This document shows, one piece after another, positions 1 to 63,472 of a stretch of DNA of 64,000 nt; position 1 is the first letter of the stretch; each line of letters starts with the position of its first letter. Origin of the DNA: an uncultured Mycoplasmatota bacterium (GTDB lineage: Bacteria; Bacillota_I; Bacilli_A; RF39; UBA660). The stretch is from assembly GCA_900553835.1 (NCBI GenBank), contig USFF01000003.1, forward strand, positions 4,183 to 68,182, read 5' to 3'. The notes under the pieces were generated by a model that was not told the DNA's origin, made no database searches, and saw only the letters and a list, made by a program, of their open reading frames with translations. A program made the translations under genes and the position numbers.

Positions 1-145
1 GTTTTACCGTTTTATCTCTACCTAATATTATTTTGTCTTTGTTATTTAACTCTATATTAGCGAGCACTTTTCTTTGCGCTTCTCTTAAATCTTCATTATT
101 AGATAAAGGCATTTCAAATGCGTTATAAAGATCATTTGTTTTCAT
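1..145 (-). CDS. 5'-partial ORF downstream of gpmI (N-terminus MKTNDLYNAFEMPLSNNEDLREAQRKVL...); product unknown, not enolase-like
   Basis: Reverse-strand ATG at 143-145 opens a frame that runs off the window start. It overlaps the gpmI stop by 14 nt. No clear SD. Confidence 0.2.
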   Translation of the reverse strand, partial: MKTNDLYNAFEMPLSNNEDLREAQRKVLANIELNNKDKIILGRDKTVK

Positions 146-1643
146 CTTTTATTATTAAACTTTCTCCAGTCATAGCGCTTGGTTTTTTTATTTCGTACAT
201 GTCTATTATAGTTGGCGCGATGTCTTTTAAAGAACCTTCTTCTTTTAGTTTATATTCATCATTACATATTATAAATGGTACTTTACTAGTTGTATGGCTA
301 GTTATTGGAGTTCCATCTTTGTTTAGCATTTTTTCTGCATTACCATGATCTGCTGTTATTATTAACTCATAAAATTGACTTTTTGCTTTTTCATATATTT
401 TACCCATACAGAAATCTGTTATTTCAATTGCATCTACTACTGCTTTGTAATTTCCAGTATGTCCTACCATATCAGGGTTTGCAAAATTTATTAGTATGAA
501 GTCGTAGTCATTTTCCATTTCTTTTAAAGCTGTTTCAGTTACTTCTCCTACACTCATTTCTGGTTTCATATCATATGTTGGGACATTAGGACTTGGTACT
601 AAGAATTTTTCTATCCTTGAGCTATTTAAATCTTTATCTCCATCAAAGAAATGAGTTACATGAGCATATTTTTCTGTTTCTGCTATTCTTGCTTGATTAA
701 ATTCAAGTTCGTCTAAGTATTCTCCTAACGTGTCATTTGGTCTTTCTACATCAAAGGCATATGGTACATTTTTGTGTATTTTAAATAGTGAAATGAATTT
801 AGTTTTTTCAAAGTGTTTTGTTTTAAACATTTTGAAATTAGGATCTGTTAAAGCATCTATTAATTCTTTCATTCTTTCAGGTCTAAAGTTTACGAATATA
901 ACTGCATCTTTTTCTTTTATAGTGCAGGATGGAGTTATTATACTTGGGTTTATGAATTCATCAGTTATGTCTCTTTTATAGTGCTCTTTGAAACATATGT
1001 TTTCATTTGGAAATACGTTTCCACTTTCATAGCATATGGCATTGTATGCCTTTTTTATCCTTTCCCATCTGTTATCTCTATCCATTGCATAGTATCTTCC
1101 GCTTATTGTACCTATTACTCCAGTGTTTAGTTTTTTTGCTTTTTCCATGAAGTTATTCACGTATTTTATTCCATTAGTTCTTGGAGTATCTCTTCCATCT
1201 GTTATAAAGTGGAATACTACTTTTTCTACTTTTTTTAGTTTAGCTGCTGCGAGGGTTGCATAGAAATGGTTTATACTAGAGTGTACTCCACCATCTGAAA
1301 GTAATCCTATCAAATGAAGCGTGCTATTATTTTCATTAACATAATCCATTGTTTCATTAAGTAGTTCGTTTTTAAAAAACTCTTTTGATTTTATTTTATC
1401 ATTTATGTATGATAAAGCACCTGGGTTTATTCTTCCACTCCCTATAGTCATGTGACCTACTTCTGAGTTTCCCATTTGTCCTTTTGGAAGGCCCACTTCT
1501 ATTCCGCTTGCTTCTAATTCAGAATGAGGATATACTGCTAAAAGTTTATCCATTACTGGTGTTTTCGCTTCTTTTATGGCATTACCATAATCACTTTTAT
1601 TTATTCCATATCCATCTAATATTAATAATATAATTTTTTTCAT
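132..1643 (-). CDS. gpmI: 2,3-bisphosphoglycerate-independent phosphoglycerate mutase
   Basis: 503-aa ORF with iPGM hallmarks (N-terminal MKK..LLILDGYG, metal-binding DGRD, ADHGNAE). Confidence 0.9.
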   Translation of the reverse strand: MKKIILLILDGYGINKSDYGNAIKEAKTPVMDKLLAVYPHSELEASGIEVGLPKGQMGNSEVGHMTIGSGRINPGALSYINDKIKSKEFFKNELLNETMDYVNENNSTLHLIGLLSDGGVHSSINHFYATLAAAKLKKVEKVVFHFITDGRDTPRTNGIKYVNNFMEKAKKLNTGVIGTISGRYYAMDRDNRWERIKKAYNAICYESGNVFPNENICFKEHYKRDITDEFINPSIITPSCTIKEKDAVIFVNFRPERMKELIDALTDPNFKMFKTKHFEKTKFISLFKIHKNVPYAFDVERPNDTLGEYLDELEFNQARIAETEKYAHVTHFFDGDKDLNSSRIEKFLVPSPNVPTYDMKPEMSVGEVTETALKEMENDYDFILINFANPDMVGHTGNYKAVVDAIEITDFCMGKIYEKAKSQFYELIITADHGNAEKMLNKDGTPITSHTTSKVPFIICNDEYKLKEEGSLKDIAPTIIDMYEIKKPSAMTGESLIIKDENK

Positions 1644-1696
1644 TAATTTTGTTCACCTAGATATATTCTAGCACAAGTTTTGATTTTTTTAAAGTA

Positions 1697-2449
1697 TTAG
1701 CATATTTTTAGTTTGTCTAAACGCATTTTATCCGCGATTGTTACTATGAATTCAGAGTTTGTTGGTTTTGCTTTGTCTATATCAACTGAATGACCAAATA
1801 TTTCTTCCATTAAATCCCAGTCTCCCCTGTTCCATGATACTTCTATTGCATGTCTTATTGCTCTTTCAACCCTTGTTACACTGGCATTGTATTTTTTACC
1901 AAGTTCTGGATATAGTTCTTTAGTTATCCCGCCTATTAATCCTTCATTTGAATATACCATTGATATTGCATCTCTTATGTATTGATAACCTTTTATATGC
2001 GAAGGTATTCCAAGCTCATGAAGTATTTTTGAAATTGTAACGTGAATTTCATTTGATTTTAGATCTAGTACTTCAGGAACTCTTTCATTACAAACTGATA
2101 TTATTCTTTTTTCTAAGTCTTTTAAGTCAAATGGTTTTAGAACAAAATATCTTACACCAAATTCACTTACGTTTCTAATTGTTTCTTGTTCATTGTAACT
2201 TGTAACTACTATTATATTTCTTTTTAAATTATTTTCTTTTATTTTTTCTAGTACATATATTCCATCTTTTCTAGGCATGATTAAATCTAGTAATACACAA
2301 TCATAATTTGTTTTTTCTATTTTTTCCCATGCTTCTTCTCCATCATAAGCAGTTGCAACTACTTCTATTGTTTCACTTTGTGAAAAGAACTCTTTTAACA
2401 TTTCTACCATTACTTTGTTATCATCTACTACTAAAATCTTTTTCTTCAT
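1697..2449 (-). CDS. spo0A: Sporulation master regulator Spo0A (receiver domain plus Spo0A-specific C-terminal DNA-binding domain)
   Basis: N-terminal receiver (VVDDN...LLDLIMP) and the C-terminal Spo0A signature (IHVTISKILHELGIPSHIKGYQYIRDAI ... EFIVTIADKMRL). Confidence 0.85.
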   Translation of the reverse strand: MKKKILVVDDNKVMVEMLKEFFSQSETIEVVATAYDGEEAWEKIEKTNYDCVLLDLIMPRKDGIYVLEKIKENNLKRNIIVVTSYNEQETIRNVSEFGVRYFVLKPFDLKDLEKRIISVCNERVPEVLDLKSNEIHVTISKILHELGIPSHIKGYQYIRDAISMVYSNEGLIGGITKELYPELGKKYNASVTRVERAIRHAIEVSWNRGDWDLMEEIFGHSVDIDKAKPTNSEFIVTIADKMRLDKLKIC

Positions 2450-2510
2450 TTTTATTCCTCTTTCTGTTATACATTATAATACACTTATTATAAAAATTAA
2501 ATGTGTTAAA

Positions 2511-2529
2511 TTTGTCTAATTTTGTCTAA
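2511..2529. promoter_or_regulatory. Tandem 10-bp direct repeat TTTGTCTAAT/TTTGTCTAAA in the spo0A upstream region; resembles degenerate 0A boxes (TGTCGAA vs TGTCTAA)
   Basis: Two copies read directly from the sequence at 2511-2519 and 2521-2529, about 60-80 bp upstream of the spo0A start. Confidence 0.3.
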
Positions 2530-2568
2530 AATGATTAAAATGGTTCATCAAATGTAAAAAGAAAAAAC

Positions 2569-3258
2569 CTAATAATTTAGATTTTTTAGTATTTCTTTGG
2601 TTTCATTTATGTTTAATGATATTTTTCCTATTAGTACTCCATCTGTAATTTTTAATATGTCATTTATGTTTTCTTTGTTAACTGATCCACCATATATTAT
2701 AGGAGTGTCTTCTTCAAAGTGTTTGTTTATGTATTTTTTTATGTAATAGTAAGTGTTTTCTATGTTTTTTAAGTCAACTGTTTCTCCTTCTATTTTACTT
2801 ACTGGTTCATAGGCAATTATTAGATTTTTTAGTGCATCATATTCTATGCTTTTTAGATAGTATTTTAGTTCTTTTTTTATTGTTTTGATGTTTTCATCAT
2901 GGCCTATACATAGCACTGTTTGAAATCCCATGTTTAAACTTTTAAATAATTTGTCTTTTATTTTAGTGTATGTGTCTAAATTAAGAAGTAATCTTTCTGG
3001 ATGGCCAACCATTGTATATTTTATATTCATACTTTTTAAGCTTTCTAAACATATTTCTCCTGTGTAAGAACCATAATTGTAACTATAGAAGTTTTGACTT
3101 CCTATATTTAGTTTTGAGTTATTAAACATAGAAAGATAAACTATGTTTGGCATTAATACTAGGTTTTCTTTAATTTTTGTTTTTTCTAATTCTTCTTTGT
3201 ATTTTTTTATTTCTTCATAACTTAAGTAACTTTTATGATTTAGAATTATTGTTTTCAT
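2569..3258 (-). CDS. tpiA: Triose-phosphate isomerase (divergent)
   Basis: Motifs VGHPERL, AYEPV and IYGGSV match the TIM signatures GHSERR / AYEPVWAIGTG / YGGSV. It sits between pgk and gpmI, the canonical position. Confidence 0.7.
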   Translation of the reverse strand: MKTIILNHKSYLSYEEIKKYKEELEKTKIKENLVLMPNIVYLSMFNNSKLNIGSQNFYSYNYGSYTGEICLESLKSMNIKYTMVGHPERLLLNLDTYTKIKDKLFKSLNMGFQTVLCIGHDENIKTIKKELKYYLKSIEYDALKNLIIAYEPVSKIEGETVDLKNIENTYYYIKKYINKHFEEDTPIIYGGSVNKENINDILKITDGVLIGKISLNINETKEILKNLNY

Positions 3259-4397
3259 TTTTCCTCCATTATTTCTAGAGGTTTTAATGTTTTTCCTTCT
3301 AGATATTCAAGCGATGCTCCACCACCTGTAGATAAGTAACTTGGAGTAAAGTTATATTTTTTTGATGCTGCGCCTGCATCTCCACCTAGTACTACTACAG
3401 TACTCTTTGTTTGTTTTAGAAAGTTAAATAGTTCTTTTGTACCATTTTCATAGTTTTCATCTTCATATTTACCCATAGTTCCATTTATAATTATTAATGG
3501 TTTATTATGTAACACCTTTTTATACATGCTAATTGTTTCGGGTCCAATATCATATATTGTTTCATCAGTATTAATGTGTCCAATTTCTTTTACACCATTT
3601 TCTGTTACTACATCTATTGGAAGCACTATTTTGTTAGTTGTAATTAATTTTTTACATTCTTCAAGTAGGTTATCCTCTACTAATGTTTTACCAACATTAA
3701 TGTTTTCACTTTTTAGGAAAGTAGCACTCATTTTGCCACCTATTAGTACTTTTTCTGATGTAGGTAATAAATTTTTTATTACACCAATTTTGTCCTCAGC
3801 TTTTGCTCCTCCTAGCAAAAGTGTTTTGTTTTCATTTTTAATTTTGTTTAGTTCTTCTATTTCTTTTAATACTAGAAAGCCTACTGCATGTGGTAAGTAT
3901 TTGCTTATTCCATAAGTTGATGCATGTTCTCGGTGGCTTGAAGCAAAAGCATCTAGTATGAAAACTTCTCCTAAAGATGCCCAGTATTTTGATAATTCTT
4001 CATCACAATTACTTTCTAATTTATTAGGGTAATCCATAAATCTTGTGTTTTCTAGAAGTAATATATCTCTTTCTTTTAGGTTATTTACTAGTTCTTCTAA
4101 TTCTTTTCCTTTTAATTTACTACTAAAGTAAATTTTTTTGTTAAGAAGCCCTTCTAATTCTTCTTTAACTGGTAATAATGAATTATTTAGATCCTCTTTA
4201 GTTTTTACTTTGCCTAAATGAGACATAAGAATTATTTTAACATTTTTTTCTAATAGATAATTTATTGTTTCTAGTGATGCTTTTATTCTGTTATTGTCTA
4301 CAACTTTGCCATCCTTAATACTTACATTATAGTCTACTCTTAGTATTACTTTTTTGTTTTCTAAATTTATATCTTTTAGTGTTCGCATTTTAGTCAC
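3255..4397 (-). CDS. pgk: Phosphoglycerate kinase
   Basis: 380-aa ORF with PGK motifs (ILRVDYNVS, LLENTRF, GGGAS), upstream of tpi. Confidence 0.9.
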   Translation of the reverse strand: MTKMRTLKDINLENKKVILRVDYNVSIKDGKVVDNNRIKASLETINYLLEKNVKIILMSHLGKVKTKEDLNNSLLPVKEELEGLLNKKIYFSSKLKGKELEELVNNLKERDILLLENTRFMDYPNKLESNCDEELSKYWASLGEVFILDAFASSHREHASTYGISKYLPHAVGFLVLKEIEELNKIKNENKTLLLGGAKAEDKIGVIKNLLPTSEKVLIGGKMSATFLKSENINVGKTLVEDNLLEECKKLITTNKIVLPIDVVTENGVKEIGHINTDETIYDIGPETISMYKKVLHNKPLIIINGTMGKYEDENYENGTKELFNFLKQTKSTVVVLGGDAGAASKKYNFTPSYLSTGGGASLEYLEGKTLKPLEIMEEK

Positions 4398-22109: not shown

Positions 22110-22442
22110 TTATTCGTTTTTCTTATATTTAATTTTTTCATCAAATTCTACATAGTCTAGGTATATCATTAGGAGTAAATACCATTTACCTGTAGTTGGA
22201 TCTGACAATATAACATGGTCCCTTCCTGCTTGCTCGATTATGCCAGTAAATTCTTTATCTCTCCAGTTAACTGAGTCTGGAAAACTCATGTATACTTTTG
22301 CTTTTTTCCCTTTGTTATTTCTTAGTATGTTTTCAATGTAACTTTGTTCCATTGGTAATTCGTCATTATCATCTTTAGCATTTACTGGTTCATAACTTGA
22401 GTATGGGATGAAGTCTGAATTTTTGTAATAACTTCCATTCAT
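22110..22442 (-). CDS. Small spore-coat-like protein (possibly GerQ/YwdL family)
   Basis: 110-aa ORF. The family call rests on weak recollection of the C-terminal region. Confidence 0.3.
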   Translation of the reverse strand: MNGSYYKNSDFIPYSSYEPVNAKDDNDELPMEQSYIENILRNNKGKKAKVYMSFPDSVNWRDKEFTGIIEQAGRDHVILSDPTTGKWYLLLMIYLDYVEFDEKIKYKKNE

Positions 22443-26799: not shown

Positions 26800-27318
26800 T
26801 TAAAATATTTTGTCTATTATTTCTTTTATGAAAAATTTGTATTCTACATCATCGGTTTCTTCTGCTTCCATTAAGCACAATGGAGGAAAAAGAACACACC
26901 AGTAATTGTCTCCACTACCAGAACCTATTTTTACTACCATGGATTCATATTCTCCTGCTCCATATTTTACTCCCTTATATATTTTTTCTGGAAAATAGTT
27001 TGTCCCATAATTTATTTTAAAATCCATATTATAATTATTTTCTTTAAATACTTCTGATACTTTGTTTTCTACTAGATTTATATTTTCTTTTATACTTGTT
27101 CTTGCTTCATTTATTGTTTTTGATTTTTCTATTTCTTTTATTACACCGTCAATAGAAGTTTTTACCTGTTCTTTTATGTATAAATCTTTCGGTGCATTAC
27201 TATTTGGTATTATTCTAAATCTTACTGAATTTTTTGGTACAATTACATATTCTTCTTTCGTGTTTACTACTGAGTATACTATGGTTATTAATGCAAGCAC
27301 TATTATGATTTTTTTCAT
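26800..27318 (-). CDS. spoIIR: Stage II sporulation protein R
   Basis: Signal peptide. SpoIIR motifs FRIIPNSNAPKD and GSGDNYWCVLFPPLC. Confidence 0.8.
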   Translation of the reverse strand: MKKIIIVLALITIVYSVVNTKEEYVIVPKNSVRFRIIPNSNAPKDLYIKEQVKTSIDGVIKEIEKSKTINEARTSIKENINLVENKVSEVFKENNYNMDFKINYGTNYFPEKIYKGVKYGAGEYESMVVKIGSGSGDNYWCVLFPPLCLMEAEETDDVEYKFFIKEIIDKIF

Positions 27319-39028: not shown

Positions 39029-39267
39029 TTGACTTCTAAAATTATAAACTATAGAATAGTATTTGTCAATTTATTATTTATTAACATATTAACATTTTAT
39101 GTTGATAACTTTATTAACAGGTTGATACTTAAATTTGTTGATAATGTGAATAAGTTGGTTTAAGTGCTGTAAAATGGGATAAAAATGTGTGTACAATCTG
39201 TTAATAAGTCATGTTAATAACATTTTTTTAAAATTTTTACTTTTAAAATAGAATAAAAAGGGTTAAA
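39029..39267. other. oriC region: cluster of DnaA-box-like 9-mers upstream of dnaA (TGTTGATAA at 39100 and 39137, GGTTGATAC at 39120, TGTTAATAA at 39199 and 39212), plus a TTGACT-N17-TAGAAT promoter-like element
   Basis: The boxes are 1-2 mismatches from TGTGGATAA. Gene strand polarity switches here, in the canonical rpmH | dnaA context. Confidence 0.6.
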
Positions 39268-40823: not shown

Positions 40824-41945
40824 ATGAAATTTAAAATTAATAAAGATGTATTATTAGAAAATTTAAATAATGTAGGGAGGGCTTTATCAAATAGAAATAT
40901 TATACCTGTAATAAATGGAATTTTATTTGAACTTACTGAGGAAGGATTATATTTAACTGCAACAGATAATGAAATTACTATTAAAACCTTTACACCTAAA
41001 AACCAAATTCATGAAATTTCTAAGGTAGGTAGAGTTGTTATTTATGGTAAATTTATTCTAGATATTATTAGGAAACTTCCTAATGAGTTAATTGAAATTG
41101 AGGAGATAGATGGATGTAAAGCAATTATTTCAACTAGTAGTAGTAAATATAATTTAAATTGCTTTAATGTTAATGAATTTCCTAATATTAAAATTGAAAC
41201 TTTAGAGAATCCTGTAAAGTTAACAGCTGGTAATTTTAAAGAAATTGTTAATCAAACTGTTTTTGCTACAAGTCAACAAGAAAGTAAACCACTTTTAACT
41301 GGTATAAATTTGAAGATTATAGGAAATAGTTTAGAGTGTGTTGCTACTGACTCTTATAGATTAGCTAAAAAAACAGTAAAGTTTAATGATTTTAGTAATA
41401 ATAGTATAAATTTAGTTATTCCTGCAAGGAATGTTAATGAATTTGTTAAACTAACAGGGGAAGATGATGAGACAATTGAACTTCATTATTTTAATAACAA
41501 GGTACTTTTTAAGTATAAAGATATATTATTTCAATCAAGTTTGTTAAATGGTACTTATCCAAATACTGATTCTTTAGTTCCTAATGATTTTGAATATGTT
41601 TATAAGGTTAATACAAATGAATTTTATAGTATTATGGATCGCGCTAGTATATTAGCTCAAGCTAAAGATAAAAATATTGTATCTTTAGAAGTGAATGGTA
41701 ATAAGTTAATTTTAACTTCTAGTAGTATTGAAATTGGTAAGATAGAAGAAGTTATGAACATTGAAGTTTTAAAAGGAAGCAATTTAAAAATTTCTTTTAG
41801 TGTTAAATATATGATGGAAGCTATTAAAAGTTTTGATAGTAAAGAAATTACTTTATATTTTAATGGCGAAATTAAACCAATTATTATAAAAGAAAATGAT
41901 AATGGAGATTTGTTACAACTAATTTTACCAATAAAAACTTATTAA
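40824..41945 (+). CDS. dnaN: DNA polymerase III beta sliding clamp
   Basis: 373 aa with a three-domain clamp architecture; AAAGGAGG SD. Confidence 0.9.
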   Translation: MKFKINKDVLLENLNNVGRALSNRNIIPVINGILFELTEEGLYLTATDNEITIKTFTPKNQIHEISKVGRVVIYGKFILDIIRKLPNELIEIEEIDGCKAIISTSSSKYNLNCFNVNEFPNIKIETLENPVKLTAGNFKEIVNQTVFATSQQESKPLLTGINLKIIGNSLECVATDSYRLAKKTVKFNDFSNNSINLVIPARNVNEFVKLTGEDDETIELHYFNNKVLFKYKDILFQSSLLNGTYPNTDSLVPNDFEYVYKVNTNEFYSIMDRASILAQAKDKNIVSLEVNGNKLILTSSSIEIGKIEEVMNIEVLKGSNLKISFSVKYMMEAIKSFDSKEITLYFNGEIKPIIIKENDNGDLLQLILPIKTY

Positions 41946-42008: not shown

Positions 42009-42035
42009 TTCGTCATATTTCGACAAATTTCGACA
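42009..42035. promoter_or_regulatory. Three Spo0A-box-like heptamers phased at 10 bp (TTCGTCA at 42009, TTCGACA at 42019, TTCGACA at 42029; reverse complement of TGNCGAA) upstream of the comK-like gene
   Basis: Tandem 10-bp direct repeat ATTTCGACAA x2 plus a third box one helical turn upstream, 45-70 bp before the ATG at 42079. Confidence 0.5.
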
Positions 42036-42078
42036 ACTCACTTTGTTATTATATCGTCCCAAGAAAGGGGGTATATGG

Positions 42079-42531
42079 ATGTATAATATCAATGATGAGA
42101 CTTTAGCAGTTTTGCCTGTTAATAGAAATAACTGTGAAATACTTGAAAAAAATGCTAATTTAATTATTAAATGTTCATCTTTAAAAGTTATTGAATATAG
42201 TTGTGAGTATTTCGGTGTTCAATATAAAAATAGAGTTAATTGTACTTATAACTTCATAAGAACAAGATATAAGGCTCCAGTTGTAATTGAAGAACATAGT
42301 AGAATTATATTTTTTCCTCTTGTATCACCTAAAAATGAAAATAATCTTTGGATAAGTTATAATAATATTTTAGATTATTGTCCTAGTAAGTGGAAAAAAG
42401 AAACAAAAGTTAAATTTAAAAACGGTGTTTCTATTGATGTTCCAGTCTCATTTTATATTTTTAACTGTCAATATTCAAAAGCAGCAAGACTTTATTCTTC
42501 TTATGAGATAAGAACTTCAAAAAAATGGTAG
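42079..42531 (+). CDS. comK: ComK-family competence transcription factor homologue (150 aa)
   Basis: Start reset to MYNINDE (AAAGGGGG SD 7 nt upstream). Blocks recalled from B. subtilis ComK align: AVLP, SC.FFG..Y..R...TY, K.P......I.FFP..S......WIS, KF.NG....VP.S...FN.QY..A.L. Confidence 0.65.
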   Translation: MYNINDETLAVLPVNRNNCEILEKNANLIIKCSSLKVIEYSCEYFGVQYKNRVNCTYNFIRTRYKAPVVIEEHSRIIFFPLVSPKNENNLWISYNNILDYCPSKWKKETKVKFKNGVSIDVPVSFYIFNCQYSKAARLYSSYEIRTSKKW

Positions 42532-42633
42532 AAAATGCTTTTTATTAGGGGGTATTTGTGATATAATTGTAATAGGTATAGGAGTACTAGTATACCTATT
42601 ATTTTTAAATTTAGGGTTATAAGAGGTTTTAAA

Positions 42634-43731
42634 ATGCATATTGAGAGAATTGAACTGACAAATTTTAGAAATTATGAAAAACTTAAACTTAATAATCTAG
42701 GAAATATTAATATTATTATAGGGGATAATGGTATTGGAAAGACATCTATAATTGAAAGTATATATGTTGCCAGTACAGCGAGGACTTTTAAAAGTAATGA
42801 TGAAGCTGTAATGATAAGGAATAATGCTGATTATTTTAAAGTTAAACTTGAAGTAAGTGATCATGAAAAGATAAAAAAACTTGATTATGTTTTAACTTCA
42901 GATGGAAAGAAAACAAAAATTAATGGAAAACTTAAAAAGAAAATAAGTGATTATATTTTTCAGTTTAAGGTTATACTTTTTTCGCCAGATGAACTTAAGA
43001 TAATTAAAGAATCTCCTACAACTAGGAGAAACTATTTAAATGTCAGTTTGTCACAAGTTAATAAAACTTATATAAAACTTCTTAATAATTATAATATTTT
43101 AATAAAAAATAAAAACGAATATTTAAAAAAAATGTTTATTAATTCTAATATGGATACAATGTATTTGGATGTTCTTGACAAGAAAATAGCAGAACTTGGT
43201 TTAGAAATTTATAATATAAGAGAAGATTATGTTGAAAAAATAAACAAAAAAATTAAAAGAATATTTAAGAAATTTAAAAAAAATGATAGTGTTTTTATTG
43301 AATATGAAAGTCAATTTCAAAATAAATCTTTGAATGAAATATTAGCTATGTTTAAAAAAAATAGGAATTACGAAGAAACTATAGGTTTTACTAAAATAGG
43401 TGTTCATAAGGATGATTTAATTTTTTTACACAATGGAAAGAATGCTAAAGAATATAGTAGTCAAGGAATTCAAAAATTAATATTACTTTCTCTTAAAATG
43501 GCTGAGATGGAGGTTTTAGTTAATGATTATTATGAAAGTCCTGTACTTCTTTTAGACGATTTGTTTAGTGAACTTGATATTATTAATCAAAATAATATTA
43601 TAAACAGCTTAAGTAATGAAGTACAGGTTTTTATAACTACTACAGATATTAAAAATGTGAAACCTAATTTAATAAAAAAGGCAAACATTATAGATTTGAA
43701 TGGAGGTAAGGAAAATGAAAGACAATTATAA
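42634..43731 (+). CDS. recF: DNA replication and repair protein RecF
   Basis: Walker [10 protein letters not shown] and an SMC-like ABC architecture; canonical position before gyrB. Confidence 0.9.
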
Positions 43732-45634
43732 TGAAAGCGATATTCAAGTATTAGAAGGACTTGAAGCGGTAAGAAAAAGACCTGGTATGTATATAGGTAC
43801 AACTGATGTTAAAGGGTTACATCATCTTGTATGGGAAATCGTTGATAACTCAATTGATGAAGCTTTAGCTGGATTTTGCAAAAATATTGAAATCATAATT
43901 AATAAGGATAATTCAATAACTGTAAAAGATGATGGACGTGGTATACCCGTTGGTAAACACCCTAAAACCGGAATTTCAACTGTTGAAACAGTTTATACAG
44001 TTTTACATGCTGGAGGTAAATTTGGTGGTGGCGGATACAAGGTAAGTGGAGGACTTCATGGTGTAGGTGCATCAGTAGTTAATGCTTTATCTAGTTCAGT
44101 TACTGTTAGAGTATATAAAGATTCAAAAATATATGAATGTAAATTTGTGAATGGTGGAAAAACTTTACAACCTTTAACTGTTATCGGAGATTGTGAGGCA
44201 AATAGAACTGGTACTACAGTTACTTTTAAACCGGATGCTGAAATATTTGATACTGAAATATACGATTATGAAACGTTAAAGGTAAGAGTTAGAGAACTTG
44301 CATTTTTGAATAAAGGACTTCAACTTACTTTGAGAGATGATAGAGATGAAGAGGATACACAAGGTGAAAAATTTTTATATGAAGGTGGTATTAGCGAGTA
44401 TGTAAAATTTTTAAATCAAAATAAGACACCTATTCATGACAATATTATTCATTTAGAGGGTTCACAAGATGATGTATTTTTTGAAGTTGCAATGCAATAT
44501 AATACAAGTTATTCTGATAATATATATTCATTCGTTAATAACATTAATACTCATGATGGTGGAACTCATGAAGAAGGAGTTAGAAGAGCATTAACTAGAT
44601 TAATTAATAATTATGCTAGAAAGACAAAGATGCTTAAGGAAAAGGATGAAAGTTTAACAGGCGATGACGTTAAGGAAGGTTTAACTATGATCATATCGTG
44701 TAAACATCCTAATCCTCAATTTGAAGGTCAAACTAAAGGTAGACTTGGTAACTCGGAAGTAAGGAAGATAGCTGATAATGTGTTTGCTGAAGGATTTGAT
44801 AGATTTTTAATGGAAAATCCAAATGAGGCTAAAATAATAGTCGAAAAAGCTATGCTTGCAAGTCGTGCTAGAAGTGCTGCTAAAAAAGCAAGAGAAGCTA
44901 CAAGAAAAAATGATTTAACTATTACAAATTTCTTTGGAAAATTAACTGATTGTAAGAGTAAAGATCCAACTGAAAGTGAATTATTTATAGTCGAAGGAGA
45001 CAGTGCCGGTGGAAGTGCTAAAAAAGGAAGAGATTCTATGACACAAGCTATTCTTCCTTTAAGAGGTAAAATTCTTAACGTTGAAAAAACTAGACTTGAT
45101 AAGGCTCTTGGAAATGAAGAAATAAAAACTATTATTACAGCTTTTGGTACTGGAATTGGACAAGACTTTGATTTGGAAAAGTTAAGATATCATAAAATTA
45201 TTATAATGACCGATGCCGATGTTGATGGTTCACATATTAGAATTTTGTTATTAACATTGTTTTATAGATATTTTAAACCTATTTTGGAGCAAGGCCACGT
45301 TTATGCTGCTCAGCCACCTTTATTTAGGGTAATGCATGGTAAGACTAGAAAATATTGCTTAGATGAGGCTGAAAAAGACAGATATTTAGCTTCTTTACCA
45401 GAGAATGTAAGAAATCGTGCAGAAATAGCTAGAATGAAAGGTCTTGGTGAGATGGATGCTGAAGAGTTAAATGAAACTACAATGGATATAAATAAGAGAA
45501 TTTTAAGAAAGATAAGTGTAGATGATGCAATTTTAGCAGATCAAGTATTTACTAAATTAATGGGTGAGGAAGTTGAACCTAGACGTAAATTCATTGAGGA
45601 TAATGCTGGATTTGTACAAAATCTTGATATATAG
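43715..45634 (+). CDS. gyrB: DNA gyrase subunit B
   Basis: Start reset to [28 protein letters not shown] (GGAGGT SD). GHKL ATPase, TOPRIM (EGDSAGG) and PLRGKILN. Confidence 0.95.
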
Positions 45635-48781: not shown

Positions 48782-48841
48782 TTAGATAGATTTTAAACTA
48801 TAAAAATTGATTGTAAGTTGTTTATTTGATATAATCTAGTT

Positions 48842-48919
48842 GTGCAACAAATGGCATAGAAACAGGTCAGGACTGGAAAGTAGCAGCTTTAATATTAACC
48901 ATTTGTGTGCACTTTTTTT
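48842..48919 (+). ncRNA. ffs: Small signal-recognition-particle RNA (4.5S/scRNA-type, about 75 nt) with its own TTGATT-N17-TATAAT promoter at 48807-48835
   Basis: A single long hairpin. The 5' GUGCAACAAAUGG pairs with the 3' CCAUUUGUGUGCAC. The apical CAGGUCAGGACUGGAAAGUAGCAGC matches SRP RNA domain IV (E. coli CAGGUCAGGUCCGGAAGGAAGCAGC), with a compensatory ACU/AGU helix closing the GGAA tetraloop. A U7 tail follows. Confidence 0.55.
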
Positions 48920-59664: not shown

Positions 59665-60165
59665 ATGAATACTGGAATTGTAAGGAAAATTGATGAATTA
59701 GGTAGAATAGTTATTCCAAAAGAAATTAGAAAAAGTTTAAATATTAGAAATGGCGAAGATCTTCAAATATTTATTAGAGATGAAGAAATTGTTTTAAAAA
59801 AATATAAAAAATTATTAACTGTAAAAGATAGTGCAATAAAATATTTATATTCATTTAGAAAAATAACAGATAGTACTGTGTTTATAACGGATAAGGATAA
59901 AATTATAGCTAGTACATTAGAAAATCTTCTTGGTGAGAAAATAGATGATAAAATTTTAAATTTAATTGAGGAAAGAAAAAGTGAAGATGGTTATTCTTTA
60001 AAAATGGGGAATAATATTATAAATAAGTATTATTATGCATTACCAATTATTATTGATGCTGATGCAATCGGAAGTATTATTATTGTAAATGATCTTCAAA
60101 TTAATGAAAAAGATAAACTACTTTCTAATGTTTTGCATATACTTTTAACGATGGAATTAAGTTAA
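59665..60165 (+). CDS. spoVT: Stage V sporulation protein T (AbrB-type N-terminal domain plus GAF-like C-terminus)
   Basis: N-terminal SpoVT/AbrB swapped-hairpin motif (MNTGIVRKIDELGRIVIPKEIR). Length and position after mfd match B. subtilis. Confidence 0.75.
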   Translation: MNTGIVRKIDELGRIVIPKEIRKSLNIRNGEDLQIFIRDEEIVLKKYKKLLTVKDSAIKYLYSFRKITDSTVFITDKDKIIASTLENLLGEKIDDKILNLIEERKSEDGYSLKMGNNIINKYYYALPIIIDADAIGSIIIVNDLQINEKDKLLSNVLHILLTMELS

Positions 60166-60276
60166 ATTTACGATTTTTTTTAAAAAAAACTTGAAATATA
60201 ATCGTTTTCATGGTATATTACTTAAGCGAAAAGGTTTCTATAACTTAAATAAGTTATGGCGAAAGGAGAATGTAAT

Positions 60277-60558: not shown

Positions 60559-61011
60559 ATGAAAATAGGAATTGCTTCTGATCATAGAGGTTATAAGGCT
60601 AAAGAAAAATTAAAGAAATATTTAATTAGAAAGAACATTGAGTTTATTGATTATGGAACATTATCGAGTGAAAGTGTTGATTATCCAGAATATGCTCTTG
60701 AAGTTTGTAAAGCAGTTTTAAATGAGGATGTTGAACTCGGGGTTTTAATATGTGGAACTGGAATTGGGATGAGCATTGCGGCTAATAAAGTTAAAGGTAT
60801 AATGTGTGCTAAAGTTGATTGTTATGAGGAAGCTAAACTAGCTAGAGAACATAATCATGCAAATGTTATAAGTTTTTCGTCAGAGTTATTTACTTCTGAA
60901 ATGAAAGACATTATTGATGCATTTTTAAAAGCTAAACCTCTTGAAGAAGAAAGGTATTTAAGAAGAATTGATGAAATAAAAGCAATTGAAAAGAAAAAAA
61001 ACTATAAATAA
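60559..61011 (+). CDS. rpiB: Ribose-5-phosphate isomerase B
   Basis: MKIGIASDHRGY N-terminus and the LICGTGIGMSIAANK active-site region. Confidence 0.85.
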   Translation: MKIGIASDHRGYKAKEKLKKYLIRKNIEFIDYGTLSSESVDYPEYALEVCKAVLNEDVELGVLICGTGIGMSIAANKVKGIMCAKVDCYEEAKLAREHNHANVISFSSELFTSEMKDIIDAFLKAKPLEEERYLRRIDEIKAIEKKKNYK

Positions 61012-61058
61012 TAATGTGTTTTATGCATATTATTATTATTTTTGCATAAAATTTAGTA

Positions 61059-61951
61059 TGAAAAAATATATTATTATAATACCTTTGTTAATTATTCTTT
61101 ATTTTTTAACTTTAAAGGATAATTCTATAGAACAAGAAAATATAACAAATAAAGATGTTTTTTTAGTTAGTGTAAGTTATGAAGGTAACATTTATAAAAT
61201 GCCCTTTAATGATTACCTTATTGGTGTTGTTTCATGTGAGATGCCTGCACTTTTTGATGATGAAGCATTGAAAGCAGGCGCAGTTGCAGCAAGGACTTTT
61301 TATATGTACAATTATTTAAATATTTCAAATTATTTAGCTAATTCTAGTGATCAATGTTTTATAAACGAAGATGTAATGAAAAAGAACTGGGGTAATAATT
61401 TTGATGAGTATTATAATAAAATTAAAAATGCTGTTGTATCTACTAATGATGAAGTTATAATGTTTAATAATGAGATTATTCATTCTTATTATTTTAGTAT
61501 GTCAAATGGGTTTACAGAGGATGCCTCCTATGTATTTAATGAATCAAAGCCGTACTTAGTAAGTGTGAGTTCAGCATGGGAAAAAAGTTTAAAAACATAT
61601 GAAAAAGAATTATTCGTTTCAAAAGAAGAAATTAAAAGTAAGTTAAATTTATCTACCAATGATTTTGATATAGCTATTAAGTCTAGGTACGAAAGTGGAA
61701 GAGTGAATGAAGTAGAAGTGTTAGGAAAAGTATATTCAGGAATTTTTTTTAGAAAGTTATTTGGACTTAGGAGTGCAGATTTTGATGTGACAAAAAAACA
61801 AGATGGTTTTGTTTTTACAACCAGAGGTTATGGTCATGGTGTTGGTATGAGTCAGTATGGCGCTAATATGATGGCTAAAGAAGGATATTTATATGATGAA
61901 ATATTAAGTTATTATTATAAAGGTACTAATTTATCAAAAAATAGTGTATAA
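61059..61951 (+). CDS. spoIID: Stage II sporulation protein D (SpoIID, lytic transglycosylase)
   Basis: Start set at MKKYIIIIPLL. SpoIID motif EALKAGAVAARTF and a conserved C-terminal region. Confidence 0.75.
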
Positions 61952-61993
61952 TTTTTATTCTTTTGTTCACATTACTAGTAGGAGAGTGAACAA

Positions 61994-62647
61994 ATGAAAA
62001 ATGGTGTAAAAAAATTATTTGTACCTGCAGTTTATTTAATAGCTGTTTTAAGTGTAATTGGATGTATTGTACTAACGATAACTAGTATTAATAAGTATTT
62101 AACTAAAGAGGAAAAGATAAATTATTCGGTTGATGGAATAATTAAGTCTGATACTGTTCCAGTTAATAAAAACCAAGATGGTAATGTTACGACTGATGAA
62201 GAATTAATAATAAGACCTTATAAGTCAGATAAAGTAAGCATAGGTAGATATTTTTATGATTTTGAGGCTGAAGCAAAGGATCAAGAAAACGCGATTATTT
62301 TCTATGAAAATACTTATATGCAAAATTCAGGTGTAGACTATATAAGTGATGAAGCATTTGATGTTATATGTGTTCTTGATGGTAAGGTGTTAAATGTTGA
62401 TTATAATGAGGTATTAGGTAATATTGTTAAAGTTGAACATGAAAAAGATATAGTTACTGTGTATCAAGGAATTGATAAAACAGACCTTAAAGTTGGTGAT
62501 ACTTTAAAACAAGGAGATATAATTGGAAAAAGTTCTACGTCTTTAGTTAATTCAAAGTACCCAAATTCATTACATTTTGAAGTTTATTATAAAGGTGCAT
62601 TAATTGATCCAGAAAATTTTTATACTTTAAAATTAGCAGATTTATAG
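61994..62647 (+). CDS. Membrane-anchored protein with a degenerate M23/LytM domain (SpoIIQ-like)
   Basis: N-terminal TM segment. The C-terminal M23-like domain has only one His of the HxH motif (SLHFEV). Adjacent to spoIID, as spoIIQ is in C. difficile. Confidence 0.5.
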   Translation: MKNGVKKLFVPAVYLIAVLSVIGCIVLTITSINKYLTKEEKINYSVDGIIKSDTVPVNKNQDGNVTTDEELIIRPYKSDKVSIGRYFYDFEAEAKDQENAIIFYENTYMQNSGVDYISDEAFDVICVLDGKVLNVDYNEVLGNIVKVEHEKDIVTVYQGIDKTDLKVGDTLKQGDIIGKSSTSLVNSKYPNSLHFEVYYKGALIDPENFYTLKLADL

Positions 62648-62761: not shown

Positions 62762-63472
62762 ATGATAAATTTTGTAATAGTAGAGGATAATCCTTTACAT
62801 CTTAAAAAGACTGAGTCATATATTGTTAAGTATATGATGCAAAATACACTTGAGTTTGAAGTAATTAAATTTGACAAACTAAGTGAAAAATTATTTAAAT
62901 ATGTTTCTAATACTGAAAATAATAATATTTACATATTAGATTATGAATTAGGTAATGGTATTGCACTTGATGTTGCAAGAAAAATTAGAAAGTATGAGTG
63001 GAGAAGTCCTATAATTATTTTTACTGTTAATGGAGGAGGTATGGCGCTTAGCTCATTTAAACAAAGATTACAAATACTAGATTTTATTAATAAGCGTACT
63101 GAGCCTGAAAAAAATCTGTTTGAATTATTTGATATTTGTTTGAGACAACTTAATGTAAGTAAAAATTTTAAATACTCTGTTGGTTCTAGTACTTTTACAA
63201 TTGATTATAATAGTATCCTATATGTTTATAAAGATACTGTTGATAGAAAGACAGTAGTTGTAACTGATAATGATGAGTTTGTTTTAAATATTACTTTGAG
63301 TAAAGCTAAAAGTTTATTAAGTAATGATTTTGTAACTACTCATAAATCTTATATTGTTAATTTAAGAAGAGTTGTTAAGCTAGATTGGAAGGAATGCACT
63401 GTTACATTTGATAATGGTACAGTTGAACCTTTGTTATCTAGAACTCACAAGAAGGAGTTGTCAGGAAAATGA
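62762..63472 (+). CDS. LytTR-family response regulator (AgrA/ComE-like)
   Basis: Receiver-like N-terminus (VEDN ... ILDYEL) and C-terminal LytTR DNA-binding domain (HKSYIVNLRRV). Confidence 0.75.
   Translation: MINFVIVEDNPLHLKKTESYIVKYMMQNTLEFEVIKFDKLSEKLFKYVSNTENNNIYILDYELGNGIALDVARKIRKYEWRSPIIIFTVNGGGMALSSFKQRLQILDFINKRTEPEKNLFELFDICLRQLNVSKNFKYSVGSSTFTIDYNSILYVYKDTVDRKTVVVTDNDEFVLNITLSKAKSLLSNDFVTTHKSYIVNLRRVVKLDWKECTVTFDNGTVEPLLSRTHKKELSGK

Follow-up and report, generated by a model that had tools for sequence, protein, structure and literature searches.

The window analysed here is a stretch of 64,000 nucleotides from the genome of an uncultured Mycoplasmatota bacterium, in which a gene of the ComK family lies between dnaN and recF and is preceded by three evenly spaced copies of the 0A box, the DNA site of the sporulation regulator Spo0A (Table 1). 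The open reading frames (ORFs) of dnaN and recF bear out the initial annotation, which had placed this gene in the slot where the S4-like yaaA gene is normally found. The origin cluster of Bacillus subtilis, dnaA-dnaN-yaaA(rlbA)-recF-remB-gyrB-gyrA, has the same conserved genes in order on either side of the dnaN-recF slot, but in the clade described here comK takes the place of the S4-like yaaA of B. subtilis and the cluster is without remB. In the window, recF overlaps gyrB by 32 nt (43700-43731), so that remB (yaaB) is absent between them, and both yaaA-like and remB-like genes are absent from this origin cluster.

Assignment of the 150-amino-acid ORF to the ComK family, for which the initial annotation had proposed a profile check, was confirmed by a full-length match to Pfam family PF06338, which spans model positions 4-151 of 152 and scores 120.1 bits (E=8.9e-35; cut-off 22.3), and the same family was present in 37 of 37 homologues. 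An alignment of 27 ComK sequences (alignment A1) is invariant at Y2, T8, E23, S41, C42, Y44, R52, K65, P67, F78, F79, P80, W91, Q131 and L138, and the invariant blocks of the family, such as SCEYFG and IIFFP..S...W, are retained in the window protein. The ComK blocks listed in the initial annotation are present as well, save that the one given as SC.FFG reads SCEYFG. No matching ComK model was found in NCBIfam, and a structure search for ComK found no solved structure. The ORF listing gives a TTG at 42043 as the start, but the ribosome-binding site and the conserved N-terminus point to the ATG at 42079; the TTG is a false start because all homologues begin M-x-Y-x-I-N, and ribosome-binding sites of the GAAAGGAGG type lie at the equivalent place in related comK loci.

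The three boxes that the initial annotation placed at 42009, 42019 and 42029 were confirmed in the exact sequence. Their starts are exactly 10 bp apart, leaving gaps of 3 bp, and they lie 44-70 bp ahead of the ATG. Compared with a 0A-box operator of 7-bp TGTCGAA cores in tandem with a 3-bp spacer, the array matches at 6/7, 7/7 and 7/7 positions. It is followed by an extended -10 element, from which transcription would start near 42059. No -35 hexamer was found at 16-18 bp spacing at the window comK promoter, and a -35-like hexamer, TCGACA within box 2 (42020-42025), stands 21 bp from the TATTAT of the -10. The motif TTCGNCA occurs 17 times on both strands of the window against 7.1 expected; the remaining 14 matches all lie inside ORFs, and the exact-register triple occurs only upstream of comK. 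From the density of the motif in the window, we estimate the chance of three TTCGNCA copies in exact 10-bp register at about 1e-7.

Two other readings of this region were rejected. The promoter reported by a scan tool, TCGACA-16 nt-TATCGT, has a -10 that is not conserved, whereas TGnTAnnAT at offsets 35-43 of the aligned promoters is conserved. The boxes do not qualify as DnaA boxes, matching TTATCCACA at only 5/9 or 6/8 positions; this reading is also opposed by the true DnaA boxes upstream of dnaA, which are TTATCAACA and TTATTCACA, and by the absence of phased arrays upstream of dnaA and dnaN.

Table 1. Features of the comK locus, the spo0A locus and the remainder of the window.
Feature	Position	Strand	Remarks
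0A box 1, TTCGTCA	42009..42015	+	Reverse complement TGACGAA, 6/7 of TGTCGAA; ends 31 bp before the -10; about -50 to -44
0A box 2, TTCGACA	42019..42025	+	7/7, TGTCGAA on the opposite strand; 21 bp between its end and the -10; about -40 to -34
0A box 3, TTCGACA	42029..42035	+	7/7; ends 11 bp before the -10; about -30 to -24
Extended -10 of comK, TGtTATTAT	42044..42052	+	Hexamer 42047-42052; conserved at fixed offset in 57 aligned promoters
Ribosome-binding site of comK, AAAGGGGG	42065-42072	+	Strong; precedes the ATG at 42079
comK-family gene	42079..42531	+	150 amino acids plus stop; Pfam PF06338
dnaN (beta clamp)	40824..41945	+	Upstream neighbour; ORF; tblastn orthologues beside comK in all loci with enough flank
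recF	42634..43731	+	Downstream neighbour; overlaps gyrB (43700..45634)
Extended -10 of recF, TGTGATATAAT, and downstream element	42557..42607	+	Hexamer 42562-42567
Conserved block GGTATAGGAGTAC	42575-42587	+	Inside a 12-bp hairpin with U-run
DnaA-box cluster, likely oriC	39060-39230		Upstream of dnaA; TTATCAACA x2, TTATTCACA x1, several TGTTAATAA-like boxes
spo0A, proposed binder	1697..2449	-	Within pgk-tpi-spo0A-gpmI; about 40 kb from the comK boxes
Phased boxes of the spo0A promoter	2503..2529	-	TTAGACA-aaa-TTAGACA-aat-TTAACAC; 10-bp period
-10-like element of spo0A, TATAAT	2492..2487	-	10 nt after the box array
Sporulation genes of the origin region	22110-22442, 26800-27318, 59665-60165, 60986-62647		Scattered; gerQ, spoIIR, spoVT-like gene, spoIID, spoIIQ-like M23 protein

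Conservation of the gene order and of the box array

Relatives of the window ComK were sought in one genome per species, giving 80 loci (L001-L080), all from metagenome-assembled genomes (MAGs) labelled uncultured Bacilli, Tenericutes, Mycoplasma or Erysipelotrichaceae and derived from human, rabbit, goat, reindeer, cattle and mouse gut. The initial annotation described comK as inserted between dnaN and recF, a description contradicted by the order dnaA-dnaN-comK-recF-gyrB, which was found by tblastn in every one of the 80 loci with sufficient flank. Across these loci identity drops to about 47% for DnaN and about 34% for ComK, and the persistence of the order down to this level of DnaN identity indicates that comK has held the slot since the origin of a large clade of uncultured, low-GC and host-associated Bacilli, to which the arrangement is therefore read as ancestral. 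The comK-bearing lineages appear to be related to RF39, RFN20 and ML615J-28, related orders that mix sporulating and non-sporulating lineages and in which spo0A is missing from some families, those reported without it being CAG-288 and CAG-826 (PMC10868615). No relevant paper came up when the literature was searched for the dnaN-comK-recF arrangement and for comK in RF39 or Erysipelotrichales.

In most loci, TTCGACA-like boxes with a 10-bp phase are present within 150 nt upstream of comK. A three-box score with a maximum of 21 was computed for 77 comK upstream regions, of which 56 scored high (at least 15). This level was reached by 0/71 upstream regions of dnaA, 1/73 of dnaN and 0/78 of recF, by 2/77 comK regions on the opposite strand and by 3/2922 random windows, and the 99th percentile of shuffles was 13. 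Tandem box pairs with at most one mismatch numbered 41 upstream of comK, compared with 1 elsewhere in 854 kb. The best conserved positions of TTCGACA in the aligned promoters are C3, G4 and C6. On TGTCGAA these are G5, C4 and G2, with which Spo0A makes its specific contacts (PMC3485338).

The distance between the boxes and the -10 is conserved as well. In a position matrix of 57 aligned promoters, T/G/T/A/A/T is conserved at fixed offsets 35-43 and offsets 15-20 read CAAATT; this CAAATT occupies the place of the -35, 16-18 bp upstream of the -10, where no lineage has a TTGACA-like sequence. Among boxes matching at least 6/7 positions, 112 of 116 end 11-12, 21-22 or 31-32 bp from the -10, including 36 at 11-12 bp. 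In promoters with a called -10, such a box was found at the box 1 position in 35/58 and at the box 2 position in 41/58; the middle position, box 2, is the most often occupied and is the sole survivor in 11 single-box loci, compared with 1 for box 1 and 0 for box 3. No box matching at least 6/7 positions was found upstream of box 1 in the window, nor as a rule in its relatives.

One subclade (L024, L052, L054, L058 and L079) combines decayed boxes with a conserved hairpin in the 5' untranslated region of comK (for instance ATTATTTTCTT...GAGAAAATAAT) that was seen nowhere else, which suggests a different control of comK, perhaps in lineages that lost sporulation.

A scan of metagenome contigs for the exact triple box returned 120 stretches, many of which were unrelated minisatellites on contigs of higher guanine-plus-cytosine (GC) content. 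In nine low-GC stretches the ORF called downstream encodes a ComK homologue, and seven of these nine contigs show dnaN with comK and recF or dnaA; L098 and L175 stop before recF. Exact triple arrays were also observed upstream of spoVS, of genes for small soluble HisKA/HATPase kinases and of a ParA/Soj gene (L134, L124, L143, L199, L206, L104; other Firmicutes contigs), making spoVS, the small kinases and soj plausible candidates for high-affinity Spo0A targets outside the clade. Elsewhere the 10-bp unit (GGTTCGACAT or CCTTCGACAC) recurs as a long minisatellite beside GAGCTCACCAACC repeats (L107, L108, L111, L118, L123, L146, L173, L179, L188 and others); these contigs, of mid-range GC, are clearly unrelated to Spo0A.

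Spo0A and the sporulation genes of the window

The proposed binder of the boxes is encoded in the window itself. Its product scores 273.2 bits against the NCBIfam equivalog TIGR02875 (cut-off 200) and contains the Pfam domains Spo0A_C (E=2.9e-39) and Response_reg (E=2.1e-28). The DNA-binding domain matches PDB entries 1LQ1 (top match, E=1.8e-42) and 1FC3 with E values of about 1e-42, and its recognition helix is nearly unchanged, with TRVERAIRHAIEV against SRVERAIRHAIEV and TRVERAIRHAIEVSW against SRVERAIRHAIEVAW in 1LQ1, which we take to be the Spo0A-DNA complex. Asp55 of the window Spo0A aligns with one column of the receiver-domain structure 1DZ3, presumably that of the phospho-acceptor. 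The Spo0A of C. difficile, whose DNA-binding domain is highly homologous, binds an identical box (PMC3485338).

The spo0A promoter of the window carries the only other tandem box pair in this stretch, formed by weak TTAGACA boxes, and most promoters of the orthologous spo0A genes, which share 68-90% identity, have 4-6 strong phased boxes of the forms TTCGACA, AACGACA, ATCGACA and TAAGACA (L086-L096). Phased boxes upstream of spo0A are expected for autoregulation and tie the motif to Spo0A. Two successive -10-like elements follow the spo0A boxes (window 2473-2529, minus strand; L086-L096), and by analogy with Pv/Ps of B. subtilis these may form a switch between two promoters. The gene lies in a glycolytic cluster, pgk-tpi-spo0A-gpmI (window 132-4397, minus strand), an unusual home for the sporulation master regulator, and this placement is kept in most of the relatives examined (L081-L096; Spo0A identity 68-99%). 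Besides the window genome, the MAG CAYWED01 was the only match by whole-genome shotgun prefix to hold both a boxed comK locus (L013) and spo0A (L093).

Further sporulation proteins are encoded in the window. The NCBIfam equivalog cut-offs are exceeded by SpoIID and GerQ, SpoIIR passes its Pfam cut-off with an NCBIfam score under the equivalog cut-off, and the SpoIIQ-like and SpoVT-like proteins are under the NCBIfam equivalog cut-offs. Their presence together with Spo0A indicates that the lineage carries an endospore programme.

Activation, repression and other readings of the boxes

Direct control of comK by Spo0A is supported by the identity of the boxes, their conservation and fixed geometry, the presence of a Spo0A with a conserved recognition helix and the arrays at spo0A, and is considered highly probable from these sequence data, whichever sign the control may take. 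The initial annotation had predicted direct control by phosphorylated Spo0A (Spo0A~P); the conserved boxes, their fixed distance to the -10 and the encoded Spo0A support that proposal at the level of sequence. The same annotation held that such wiring is not described for B. subtilis, where Spo0A was said to act on comK only indirectly. This is incorrect: gel-shift and mutagenesis experiments of Mirouze et al. 2012 (PMC3297582) showed direct binding of Spo0A~P to the comK promoter of B. subtilis (PcomK), where three of the sites activate and two repress.

PcomK, with its sites A1-A3 and R1-R2, likewise combines a ComK-family gene with several Spo0A boxes and provides a direct link between the sporulation phosphorelay and the competence regulator. 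Its five sites are imperfect, each having 1-2 mismatches, lie dispersed about a promoter whose -35 is normal, and act with ComK boxes, Rok, CodY, AbrB and DegU, whereas the window comK has three contiguous near-consensus boxes in a strict 10-bp period that abut an extended -10 without a -35. The B. subtilis gene is not beside the origin, unlike the origin-side comK of the window. The spacing of the window boxes resembles that on DNA of phages phi29 and Nf, where tandem 0A boxes 3 bp apart are a known Spo0A binding unit (PMC2731898): two to four boxes with 3-bp gaps give a Spo0A footprint of one 20-30 bp block. The phage sites repress early promoters or block protein-primed replication, and do not precede a host regulator gene.

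The comK gene is a fixed part of the origin-proximal cluster dnaA-dnaN-comK-recF-gyrBA, and its promoter consists of an extended -10 (TGnTAnnAT) without a -35, with the three head-to-tail Spo0A boxes in the -35 region. In the proposed mechanism, Spo0A would be phosphorylated at the end of growth and would bind the boxes as tandem protomers on a single helix face. Spo0A~P would then touch region 4 of sigma-A and replace the missing -35 contact, as at spoIIG and spoIIE, thereby turning on comK, and the ComK-family protein would in turn act on a regulon of its own, presumably of DNA uptake and recombination functions. This full reading, including direct activation of comK by Spo0A~P, is judged moderately probable.

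Activation is favoured because no lineage has a -35 to mask, box 2 is -35-like at 21 bp from the -10, and single-box lineages keep box 2. In B. subtilis, the sigma-A promoters of spoIIG and spoIIE, which are activated by Spo0A, likewise have a 0A box over a -35-like hexamer 21-22 bp from the -10 (22 bp at spoIIG and 21 bp at spoIIE, compared with the usual 17), and activation involves contact with region 4 of sigma-A. Those promoters have a distal site near -90 and no spacer box, whereas the window promoter has box 3 between the -35 region and the -10 and no distal site, so that it is not a strict member of the spoIIG/spoIIE class; the targets also differ, being a sporulation sigma-factor operon in that class and a ComK gene here. 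In the pho box of PhoB, 7-bp direct repeats in a 10-11 bp period stand in place of the -35, and about 10 bp separate their end from the -10. This class II architecture, in which tandem response-regulator protomers activate, shows the window geometry to be compatible with activation, as an analogy of architecture only, PhoB being of another regulator family with another recognition sequence.

Several observations weigh against activation of a competence-type regulator. About a quarter of related loci have weak or single boxes, and no late competence gene was recognised among the window ORFs, part of which was scanned against family libraries and the remainder read by eye, so that the function of the product, presumably in competence, is taken from its family membership. 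A protein bound at box 3, within the spacer, could obstruct RNA polymerase, and extended -10 promoters can function without a -35, so the missing -35 is no proof of activator dependence. In B. subtilis, the Spo0A site that overlaps the -35 of PcomK (R1) is repressing (PMC3297582), and Spo0A represses the phage promoter A2c through a pair of boxes with a 3-bp gap, which lie over part of the core promoter (PMC2731898). It is conceivable that the extended -10 is constitutive during growth and that Spo0A~P, bound from -50 to -24 in the place of sigma region 4, would exclude RNA polymerase and switch ComK off at commitment to sporulation. Such repression is a serious rival, but is considered rather unlikely: there is no lineage with a -35 hexamer for the operator to mask, single-box lineages retain the position 21-22 bp from the -10 and not the spacer box, and the same geometry is found at spo0A, which is positively autoregulated in studied species.

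The repeats could also be read by a protein other than Spo0A, such as the ComK-family protein itself in autoregulation or a winged-helix response regulator that binds direct repeats, with the match to the 0A box coincidental. Direct repeats in a 10-11 bp period are typical of OmpR/PhoB-type regulators, and comK is retained in loci with decayed boxes, but ComK, the master activator of late competence genes such as comG, comE and comF, binds AAAA-N5-TTTT boxes and not TTCGACA. Autoactivation has a precedent in B. subtilis, where ComK activates its own promoter (PMC3297582). Another binder is nevertheless improbable, given that the boxes match the exact Spo0A consensus and are conserved at the Spo0A contact bases, that like arrays lie upstream of spo0A, spoVS and sporulation-type kinases, and that a Spo0A with an intact recognition helix is encoded in the window.

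The boxes lie about 1.3 kb from the dnaA-dnaN spacer, and Spo0A~P can block initiation through 0A boxes at origins (PMC2731898), which raises the alternative that Spo0A uses them to control replication near oriC, in the way that it binds 0A boxes at the B. subtilis origin, and that they are no switch of comK. Set against this are the 11/21/31-bp register to the comK -10, which is fixed across the clade, the near absence of comparable arrays, with 0/71 for the region ahead of dnaA and 1/73 for the spacer between dnaA and dnaN, and the sequence of the DnaA boxes upstream of dnaA, which is distinct from that of the TTCGACA boxes, and control of replication is regarded as very improbable. The initial annotation had also considered a generic AT-rich tandem. 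Short repeats are common in DNA as poor in GC as the window (27%), but the repeat core holds C, G and C, the register is conserved across species with DnaN identity down to about 47%, and the observed scores are far beyond controls and shuffles. The conservation statistics thus refute a chance tandem without function, to which a negligible probability is assigned.

The comK-recF spacer and the wider meaning of the probable Spo0A-comK link

Downstream of comK, the block GGTATAGGAGTAC lies at a fixed distance after the TGTGATATAAT element of recF and is kept in most of L001-L080, even in those without conservation of the hairpin and U-run around it; some of the distant loci have AAGTACTGGGATACTAGTTTTGGAGTTGATGC in its place. 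The hairpin was rejected as a structured RNA, as RNAalifold found no covariation, the fold z-score was -0.9 and there was no Rfam match at E<=1. The conserved feature of the spacer is taken to be the sequence block, its structure being predicted. The element may be a comK terminator, a recF leader or both, and the block may serve as a 5' leader or stabiliser of the recF-gyrBA mRNA, as a DNA operator, or as both.

Elsewhere in the window, an AgrA/LytTR-type response regulator at the window edge (62762-63472, plus strand) could belong to a peptide quorum-sensing system. The signal recognition particle RNA was located at 48838-48918 and an L31 leader at 60238-60268, and a tRNA scan of the whole 64 kb found no tRNA gene.

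The direct link between Spo0A and comK is already known in B. subtilis, of which the clade shows a conserved variant; new are the fixed origin-side position of the gene, the compact three-box promoter without a -35 and the breadth of the arrangement in an uncultured clade. A more speculative reading, which we consider doubtful, concerns the role of ComK in this large lineage, which includes reduced-genome gut Bacilli with repeated loss of sporulation. Instead of a facultative competence switch, ComK, with recF and gyrBA as neighbours and in the slot that yaaA has elsewhere, would be a core, origin-linked and immediate-early Spo0A target, a developmental regulator through which DNA handling is tied to the onset of sporulation or stationary phase; the three-box promoter would then be the ancestral form of the Spo0A-ComK link, elaborated later in B. 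subtilis.

For these uncultured bacteria, the results give a testable prediction, namely that a competence-type regulator is under the direct control, positive or negative, of the master regulator of sporulation. They also indicate that the direct link between Spo0A and comK is no peculiarity of B. subtilis but is old and widely conserved, here in a much simpler form that should be easy to dissect. The loss or decay of the boxes in some lineages provides a natural experiment on the erosion of a regulatory link when sporulation is lost. The presence of the locus further suggests that abundant gut lineages may be capable of natural transformation, or at least of a state under ComK control, which bears on horizontal gene transfer in the gut.

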